A stretch of DNA of 64,000 nt, from the NCBI RefSeq assembly GCF_011745625.1, contig NW_027191482.1, positions 62,001-126,000 of the forward strand, written 5' to 3'. The position numbers and the translations under genes were made by a program. Source of the DNA: Cladosporium halotolerans (Eukaryota). The notes below the pieces were generated by a model, which ran no database searches, was not told where the DNA came from, and worked only from the letters and a program-made list of their open reading frames with translations. Below are positions 27,671 to 30,428 of this stretch, in pieces (the first letter of the stretch is position 1; every line of letters starts with the position of its first letter).

Positions 27671-29486
27671 TCACGCTTCAACCTGCTCCGCCACCCTCCG
27701 AAGCAACGGCTCCCTCTCCCCACTCTTCTCCCCGGGCATGCCCTTCCACTCTCCACCCCCAACCTTCCCAACCCTCCACGTCCCCTCCTCCCTCGCTTTC
27801 TCAAAGAACTCCAGATTCTCCTCGAACCCGCGCCCGCCCGTCTCCGGCACGTAGACCTGCGTCACGACGCCCGCGACCAGGTTCGTGCCCGCGAAAATCG
27901 CAAACAGCCAGTACGACAGCGTGTTGAAGAGGATGGGCGTCAGCAGTGTCACGGCGAAGTTCGACAGGCCCCAGGTGATCACGCTGATGGCTGTGCCTTG
28001 GGCGCGCGCCGTCGTGGGGTAGATTTCGGTCGGGATCAGCCAGGGTGGCACGAGCCAGGTTATGCCGAAGGTTGCGGTGGCGAGGTAGAGGGTCTTTTTG
28101 TTTGGGGGAATTGGTTAGTTTTGGTTTCGGGGATTTGAGGAGTAGGTGAGGTGTGGGGGAGGAAGACGTACTGGGAGGGTTGTTAGCGTTTGTTTGGAAG
28201 ATGATTGAAGGGGTTGAAGTGAGGGACTTACCGACTATACCAGGGATTGCAACGCCTTCGGAGGGAATACCGAGTTGCTCGGAGTTCCTCTCGAGACCGG
28301 CGAAGACGGCCAGCAGGGCGAAACCTAGCGTTAAGAGAGCAGAGCCCCAAACCATCAACGCGCGCCGACCAACCGCATCAATCAGCAACCATGCGAAAGT
28401 CATGAGAACGAAGTAGGAGATATAATTCCCCTGCGTCAGAAACTCCGACTTCCGCACCCCATACCCCAACAGCTCGAAAATCTGCGGCCCGTACACCGAC
28501 ACCGCTCCATACCCCGTCAGCGCCTGGTTGACCTGCCCGACGACCGTGAGCACCGTCGCGTGAAACTGCGCCCGCCCCGGCACCAGCATATCCACATACC
28601 CCACGCTCCCCCCGCCCTCGACCTCCTGCCTATGCGCCTCGACCAGCTCCTTACACGTCCCCTGTACCTCCTCCCCATCCTCCCCACCACCCAGCACAGC
28701 CGCCAGACTCCCCTTCGCCTCCCCCTCGCGCCCATGGTAAATCAGCCACCGAGGCGACTCCGGCAACTTCTCAATAAACAACAACAACCCCAGCGGATAA
28801 ACCTGCATCGCCACAATCGGCACTCTCCAAGCCCACTCGTTCGATTTCCCGAGAGAGACAGTCGCCGCAAGGTTGATCGCAAACGCCATGTTCAGCCCGA
28901 AAACGTTGCTCTGGAACTCCTGCGCCAGCGCTTTGCCGCGCGCGCCGTCGCTGCTCAGCTCAGAGCTGTACACCGGCACCACGCTGTCGATGCCGCCCAC
29001 GCCGAGGCCCATCACCACTCTCCCCGCGTACATGACCGCGCGCGCGCCGCGGGAGTATCCCAGGCCGGCGACGAACATGAGCAGGTTGCCGAGGGAGGCG
29101 GCGAGCAGGCTGGCGAGGAGGGCGGGTTTGCGGCCGCGGCGGTCGGCGAGGTGCGAGAAGGCGACGGCCCCGAGGGCGCAGCCGAGGTAGTAGACGGAGA
29201 CGATTATGCCGATTTGGGGGGAGGTGGGGGGCAGGGACATGGTGTGCAGGTAGGAGGTGTTGGTGTTTATGAGGGACATCATGCCTTGGTCGTAGCTGGA
29301 GGGGGGTTAGCGGGTTGGGATTGGGGGGTTTGGCGATGGTTTTCTTGTGGGTGGAGGGCTGGCTTACCCATAGAGCGCTATGGCTGTGCTTGAGAAGAGC
29401 ACGACCTGCGAGGAGTGTTAGCTGGGCTGGTGGGTGTTTGGGAGTGAGGATGTTTAGGGACAGACCTGCTGTTTCTTGTCGTTCAT
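27671..29486 (-). CDS. MFS sugar porter (514 aa)
   Basis: YGYDQG, DRRGRK, GRVVMGLGVG, WRVP, PESPRWL, DAVGRR, PTEIYP and PETG motifs. Exons 29486-29466, 29405-29368, 29295-28233, 28093-27671. Confidence 0.9.
28094..28232 (-). other. [D1,2] stwintron (internal intron 28231-28171 nested in the donor of the external intron)
   Basis: GTC|G[GTAAGT...GCTAAC AACCCTCCCAG]TACGT...ACTAAC...AAAG|ACC. Removing the internal intron creates a GTACGT donor. Confidence 0.85.
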
Positions 29487-30428
29487 GAAGCTCTTGAGTC
29501 TATCCATCTTGACCGGTCTCCGTCCGACGGAGTCGGAGACGATGTAGTGTAGACCTGAAACGATGCCAGGGGCTTTTCCTCACAACGAGTTGTACAAAAG
29601 ACCAAGAAAATTCCTCCCAGAATCAATTGAACGAGGGACCGTTGGTTGATGATCAACAAAACAAAAGAGCCCTCAAAAAGCCCCGAAAACGACAGGGACC
29701 ACGATGGCACTTCAACGCAAATCAACAGGGAAGAAGCAATGACGTCCAGGGCACTAAATCGAAACTCAAACCAAAAGATCCACTGTAAGGTTGCACGTGG
29801 TACCTTGCAAAAAGGCGCCGATGGGCGTTCTGCCGCATCGCAAGCAGATGTCATGACGTTGGATTGCATAGGATCGACCGACGTCAGGTGGGGCTGGGCT
29901 GTTTGGCTGGCTGGCTGGACTCGACGGAGTGAGGATTTGCGGCACATGCTGCGAGATTCCAGGGCTTGCGGATCTCGGACGATAGAGCATCGATCTGAGG
30001 GCAGGAGGGCTGGATTTCTGTTACAGAGGTATTGGTTTTTCAACTTACGAATGGCATTCTAAAGGCCATCGTGAGTGAGAGTTTCGACGGCGATAATCAC
30101 GTAGGTGGAATGTCATAGTCTAGATCACGAAACATTGAATTAATCCTTCCTCATGAATGCCATGGTCTAGACACATCCCGTTGCCCAACCGTCTAGTAGG
30201 TAGAAAGCTAAGAGTCCGCAAAATCATCGCAATGAAAACAGCTTACCAATCCATCAAAAAAGCAGTGAACGCCATGCAATTTTTCTATCCTTCTTTCGTC
30301 TGCGACAGTCTCGTCATCAATCAAAAGAAAAGAGAAAACGCCGTGCAAAAGATGCAATGCAGTCGTGTATGTCCATCACAAAAGTCAGAAGACAATTAGA
30401 CAAGTAATGCTTATAAGGCATCACCCAT

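Follow-up and report, generated by a model that had tools for sequence, protein, structure and literature searches.

A [D1,2] spliceosomal twin intron in a sugar porter gene of Cladosporium halotolerans

The last two coding exons of a transporter gene of Cladosporium halotolerans are separated by 139 nucleotides that carry two sets of intron signals. Does this insertion leave the message as one ordinary intron, as the public gene model implies, or is it a spliceosomal twin intron (stwintron), in which one complete intron splits a splice site of another? The gene lies on the minus strand of the window, i.e., of the whole 64-kb stretch of DNA that was analysed, and consists of four coding exons that encode 521 residues (Table 1). 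The Pfam Sugar_tr domain is recognized on both sides of the insertion, with scores of 185 and 63 bits against a gathering cut-off of 22.3, and the product is, judged by its sequence, a sugar porter (PF00083) whose nearest named proteins come from Cladosporium. The NCBI model for C. halotolerans, P0121, is identical to this product at 520 of 521 positions and lacks Val381 only, because that model uses a GTCGGT donor three bases upstream.

Table 1. Coordinates of the sugar porter gene and of the twin intron within the 64-kb window
Feature	Position	Strand	Description
Coding exon 1, sugar porter PF00083	29466..29507	-	ATG at 29507; gene model; N-terminus identical to P0121
Intron 1	29406..29465	-	60 nt; unusual donor GTCTGT; skipped in X5 contig
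Exon 2	29368..29405	-	Gene model; piece of X5 record 7
Intron 2	29296..29367	-	72 nt; canonical; absent in L015, L016 and L018
Exon 3	28233..29295	-	Last codon Val381; Pfam Sugar_tr profile 26-344 of 452, E 2.6e-54
[D1,2] stwintron	28094..28232	-	139 nt; phase 0; ends GG...AG
G1 of split external donor	28232..28232	-	Invariant in 4/4 loci
Internal intron	28171..28231	-	61 nt; GTAAGT donor; branch GCTAAC 28187-28182; CAG acceptor
External intron remainder	28094..28170	-	77 nt (78 with G1); TACGT start; branch ACTAAC 28119-28114; AAG
Rival cryptic donor GTCGGT, within Val codon	28230..28235	-	Use removes 142 nt and Val381, as in the public model
Exon 4, C-terminal transporter part to stop codon	27671..28093	-	Pfam Sugar_tr profile 357-447, E 2.9e-17

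Read on the minus strand from 28232 to 28094, the element begins with a single G, followed by a 61-nt intron and then by 77 nt that belong to a 78-nt intron. The first-pass annotation of this DNA, which had described a 139-nt gap with two branch sites and two acceptors, matches these letters base for base, coordinates included. The start is GG-T, and the external donor is split between its G1 and T2 by an internal intron that is complete and canonical. G28232 and the 77-nt remainder together make a 78-nt intron with the donor GTACGT; what removal of the internal intron leaves is thus a canonical intron, equipped with a branch point and an acceptor of its own, in agreement with the motifs and spacings of model A, the five-motif [D1,2] formula given in the accessible text of PMC9024468. 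Every defining [D1,2] feature that was tested is present, and the order of the two splicing steps is what we infer. The element is real and is correctly read as a [D1,2] stwintron, a member of a rare, previously described class of introns.

The same signals bear on the order in which the parts could leave. The G of the internal CAG also begins a perfect GTACGT, so that prior excision of the downstream part would destroy the internal acceptor. By the rule given in the accessible part of PMC5639578, and with A as the next exon base, such downstream-first excision would be a dead end here. The first exon base after the element is A in the window, L015 and L016, and G in L018 alone (these three loci are described below). 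Because of this A, the [A2,3] route is impossible in this strain, and the window does not have the [D1,2]/[A2,3] alternative-splicing option; L018, by its next base G, has [A2,3] splicing as a second option.

When all 139 nt are taken out, two open frames meet in phase 0 and encode the 521-aa protein. As the first-pass annotation had claimed, one-step splicing from GTAAGT to the distal AG retains a G and shifts the frame, with a stop after 97 wrong residues. Its statement that internal-first removal creates a GTACGT donor, and that removal of the 78-nt external intron is then in frame, also agrees with the sequence. The half-spliced form, in which the external intron is kept, stops after 18 codons. 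Among the enumerated GT/GC-to-AG pairs, every in-frame one-step route to the start of the last exon deletes coding residues: the donor at 28235 costs Val, those at 28250 and 28253 cost 6-7 residues, and donors further upstream cost more. The unspliced message of this genome remains open for 143 codons without a stop; in L015, L016 and L018, unspliced read-through stops after 14-27 codons.

Two other readings of these letters were rejected. A 501-aa open frame at 27801-29306 runs across the unspliced element, and such read-through is not conserved in the relatives. A micro-exon (TAC, followed by GTCTTC) would have a poor donor and would shift the frame.

Orthologous loci were taken from 80 related metagenome loci, with counts at the site from a tblastn pass. 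Among those that span the site, the three closest, L015, L016 and L018 (77-81% identity), carry 180, 221 and 161 nt, respectively, at the same codon, made up of an internal and an external intron of 73+107 nt in L015, 60+161 nt in L016 and 57+104 nt in L018. Each of them starts with GGT(A/G)AGT and continues with the internal intron, CAGTACGT, a second branch point and CAG, and in all three the frame returns once the whole element is removed. CAGTACGT is invariant across the loci, and the intron bodies diverge in both length and sequence. The hybrid of internal acceptor and donor remnant (CAG/TACGT) is the same in all four genomic loci, the window included. Conservation of position and motif, the criterion given in the accessible text of PMC9024468, is thus seen in 3/3 clade loci that cover the site, and the comparison with orthologues that the first-pass annotation had proposed finds the same layout at the same codon in each.

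The element lengths are not equal modulo 3, and the bodies give poor alignments; therefore, it is the signals that are conserved and not a coding frame. Conserved signals are, on this sequence comparison, what two-step splicing would predict and what one-step routes would not. Elsewhere among the 80 loci, 67 cross the site without an insertion, and the other 10 do not cover it. Split or gapped matches elsewhere in the gene are found in 58 of the 67 insertion-free loci, many of them near-duplicates, which suggests that these 58 are genomic DNA.

The remaining introns of the gene vary among the same loci. All introns of this gene are C/A-rich and resemble one another. The off-consensus donor of intron 1 has GTATG-type counterparts in L015, L016 and L018, and intron 2, missing from this position in all three, may have been gained recently in this lineage. 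At 18 codons downstream of the stwintron site, a plain intron is present in other Dothideomycete orthologues (L020, L024-L027, L029, L044, L045 and L062) and absent from the window, L015, L016 and L018. The external intron of L016 (L016:3551-3771) contains two branch-point/acceptor pairs, the earlier one being CCTAAC...AAG, and the distal pair alone restores the frame.

Evidence for the mature junction comes from assembled contigs of four sequencing runs (X1, X5, X6 and X19 of 24 listed), none of them on record as RNA. In an X5 contig with 22 differences in 627 aligned bases, a single letter separates position 28093 from 28234. That letter, at 28233, gives a synonymous Val codon, the same codon as in L018. 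The joint therefore skips 139 nt and keeps Val; neither 142 nor 138 nt fits. The X5 organism is a ~96% identical relative and a different strain, so that a message free of the whole element, G1 included, is seen in one contig from a close relative of this strain; apart from the synonymous third base, it has the mature junction that the first-pass annotation had predicted. From another X5 contig, introns 1 and 2 are missing, and the run therefore contains spliced RNA. A plain or absent intron in the DNA of the X5 organism would give an identical junction, which is unlikely because the 99%-identical neighbours P0001 and P0123-P0127 are of the GG type.

One of two X1 contigs ends at 28093 and the other begins one letter before 28234, a weak hint that fits the parting of spliced and unspliced paths. 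The X6 versions are unspliced, and their intervening sequence is of about the same length; no spliced joint at the element is found in the X1 or X6 contigs. X19 carries the whole stretch unchanged and may be the source of this DNA, so that it gives no independent support. No intermediate or mis-spliced joint is found among the contigs compared, which, being assembled, drop rare forms.

Searches of both strands of the 64-kb window with model A return a single match, at 28232, of 139 nt. The model also matches L015 and L018 and misses L016 because the external intron of the latter exceeds the model range. Any model A match occurs in 3 of 100 third-order Markov windows, a simulation without real introns that understates the background due to ordinary introns. 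A shorter pattern matches the genome at 13 places, and its controls match at 12 places without the leading G and at 4 with an altered hybrid motif. Since the controls are of similar size, the motif alone is not diagnostic and the case rests on transcript and orthologue evidence; for the same reason, the genome-wide counts were rejected as a stwintron census. The [D1,2] reading of the first-pass annotation is supported by the X5 junction, by the hybrid motif invariant in 4/4 loci and by the sole match to model A in the window.

The pattern searches also brought up other candidates. In a rough frame test of 18 pattern matches, 8, with this site among them, run into a stop within 18 codons when read as a simple intron and regain a long open frame on twin excision. 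Other [D1,2] candidates in the genome are L002, L004, L005, L011, L012, L095 and L096 (around position 1501 in each); L006 and L013 are possible [D1,2] cases, and the other 8 pattern matches are unsupported by this test. One of the 12 control matches, L103 (G000:C112:318105-318182, minus strand, and downstream), is a candidate pure [A2,3] stwintron: no G precedes its 72-nt first intron, the 152-nt second intron shares the last G of the first, and the next base is G. Its simple reading stops after 8 codons, and the [A2,3] reading stays open for 150. An apparent 3-nt micro-exon (TAC) lies between two introns in L105 (G000:C142:184641-184699, plus strand). The introns L107 (G000:C218:54309-54368) and L108 (C246:260279-260336), on different contigs, have the same flanks, TCATTCCC before and TACGTCATCT after, and possibly belong to paralogous genes that have a micro-exon or a twin intron of another type.

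Very probably, then, the element is a strict [D1,2] stwintron that leaves the message through two U2 reactions of the ordinary kind. In the first step, the 61-nt internal intron, with its own donor, branch point and CAG, would be excised, bringing G28232 and TACGT together into the donor GTACGT. In the second, the 78-nt external intron would be excised via ACTAAC and AAG. The predicted product joins Val381 to Thr382 in frame, at the junction seen in the close relative, and gives a full-length sugar porter. Skipping either step would result in a frameshifted or truncated message that would probably be degraded.

The public model implies a different route, one ordinary 142-nt intron, with GTCGGT at 28235 as donor and the AAG at 28094 as acceptor, that deletes Val381. 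This intron is in frame, P0121 is annotated accordingly, GTNGGT is present in all four genomic loci, and intron 1 of the same gene has a similar donor with C at +3 (GTCTGT). It is nevertheless quite improbable as the route used in the cell. The Val codon is kept in the X5 contig. Among 120 homologues, 93 have the spacing with Val and none is shorter by one residue (a longer motif match is seen in 10, and 17 have no match). A 142-nt intron also leaves the internal branch point, CAG and TACGT, invariant in 4/4 loci, unexplained and does not account for plain-intron relatives whose intron begins after Val. Loss of Val through this donor was the outcome that the first-pass annotation had set against its own reading: the public C. 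halotolerans model does use the donor, but neither the X5 contig nor the homologues bear out the loss.

Slimmer still are the chances of one-step removal of the 139 nt by a non-canonical GG donor, with the internal signals acting as helpers or decoys. Such a route yields an identical mature junction, and the X5 contig cannot tell it from two-step removal. However, a GG donor is outside the U2 consensus, which counts against it. Nor does it predict the conserved exact hybrid CAG/TACGT that rebuilds a consensus donor; reconstituted donors have been demonstrated for other [D1,2] cases, as described in the accessible texts of PMC5639578 and PMC5587772. Hardly credible at all is a mainly regulatory or decaying element, with most transcripts mis-spliced or intron-retaining and the gene attenuated or a pseudogene: frameshifting routes exist, the unspliced message is open in this genome, and mis-splicing of [D1,2] stwintrons is documented in the accessible part of PMC12403724, but the coding exons on either side are undamaged, at 77-81% identity to orthologues that share the layout, the X5 contig has the correct assembled form, and read-through is not conserved in the three relatives.

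The strict [D1,2] stwintron has no sequence-similar copy elsewhere in the genome: at E<=1 the search finds the element itself alone, although low-complexity DNA may be skipped by such a search. Within the element, RNA folding does not rise above shuffles (z 0.04), there are 0 inverted repeats, and there is no self-complementary symmetry, 293 of 300 shuffles being at least as symmetric. In view of this lack of structure, symmetry and a second copy, it is an old single-copy stwintron and not a propagating one. [quoted passage not shown]

Metagenome gene calls that run into the intron show its first bases and were used to follow the site in 175 proteins. Of these, 52 read Gly-(Lys/Glu/Met/Gln), as expected from a GG-T-type start, and 14 read Val-(Arg/Ser), which a plain phase-0 intron would give; a further 51 are either spliced or free of the intron, and 58 have no motif match. 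Eight of the 14 Val-type proteins read through to the next exon, which implies a single intron with a length of 67 or 91 nt. A quick tree was made of 28 rows picked from 57: 17 of the GG type, 4 of the plain type and 7 outgroup rows. Every row with an intron falls in one clade (SH-aLRT 98). Rows with a plain intron lie inside two clades, surrounded by GG-type rows, and two changes suffice. A single clade of GG-type rows is rejected (p-AU 8e-13) in an AU test made post hoc, after the first tree had been seen. The plain-intron class, which includes P0006, P0007, P0130, P0141 and P0004 (C. fusiforme), is defined by protein read-throughs, not by DNA, and one of the two events is carried by P0004, an automatic model in which a stwintron could equally be hidden.

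These patterns suggest that the stwintron is ancestral in the Cladosporium-like clade, with about two reversions to a plain intron. On the simplest reading, it would have been gained at a site that other Dothideomycetes have empty, close to the root of the clade, and kept in most members, with the [A2,3] option available where the next base is G (L018) and the internal intron lost about twice. A plain-intron precursor in an unsampled early branch is possible. A bolder scenario, tentative and on balance doubtful, is that the element was born whole at an empty site near the Cladosporium root, with no plain precursor, and that at least two plain reversions, one among species with near-identical transporter proteins, took place through recombination with a reverse-transcribed splicing intermediate. 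If true, it would represent a very recent, datable de novo [D1,2] gain outside Xylariales, together with loss through the intermediate.

No report of this stwintron was found in the openly accessible literature, outside which lie the subscription journals, including the first stwintron papers. One supplement file of PMC9024468, which perhaps does not include the spreadsheet tables, contains no match for this case. The [D1,2] reading returns to the public gene model one residue of a membrane helix, illustrates how annotation conceals such introns, and extends the documented [D1,2] stwintrons to a Cladosporium gene without a found prior report. All known fates are seen at this one site: strict [D1,2], [D1,2]/[A2,3], plain intron and no intron. 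The genus is small and easily sampled and thus suits tests of intron gain and loss.

The mechanism is not new, and the range of states at the site repeats those of dhaoS and bioDA, as far as the accessible texts of PMC5587772 and PMC5639578 describe them. More than 1500 [D1,2] stwintrons are reported from Hypoxylaceae alone in the available part of PMC9024468. With the unique ones among them, the present element shares the fit to model A, a single copy and a position conserved in orthologues, and its 139 nt fall within their range of 114-313 nt. In contrast to the underlying symmetry described there for all 117, none is found here, in a Dothideomycete host and by a different test. The sister [D1,2] stwintrons of Xylariales, in the accessible text of PMC12403724, share the splice layout of the present element and, like it, can be mis-spliced with retention of the G, but carry near-terminal inverted repeats, whereas the Cladosporium element has no repeat, second copy or fold above shuffles.

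The lipS [D1,2] and bioDA [D2,3] stwintrons (PMC5639578, accessible part) are excised in two steps, as proposed here, and in bioDA the internal intron alone has been lost repeatedly, as the tree suggests for the present site. At the lipS and bioDA sites, early-diverging fungi have a plain intron, whereas the plain introns found here are confined to the clade and appear to be a derived form. The closest parallel in its range of states is dhaoS, the DHA1 antiporter gene of Aspergillus nidulans and its orthologues, as presented in the accessible text of PMC5587772. The two differ in gene family, lineage and phase (phase 0 here), and the intermediate that was cloned for dhaoS is deduced here from the sequence; no 1-nt-shifted intron is seen among the relatives compared. 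Yet both are [D1,2] stwintrons in genes for MFS-type membrane proteins, both occupy a position specific to one orthologue clade, and both were missed by automatic annotation. In both, A or G at the first downstream base separates strict [D1,2] from [D1,2]/[A2,3] forms (here L018), and plain introns have been, or appear to have been, derived through loss of the internal intron.
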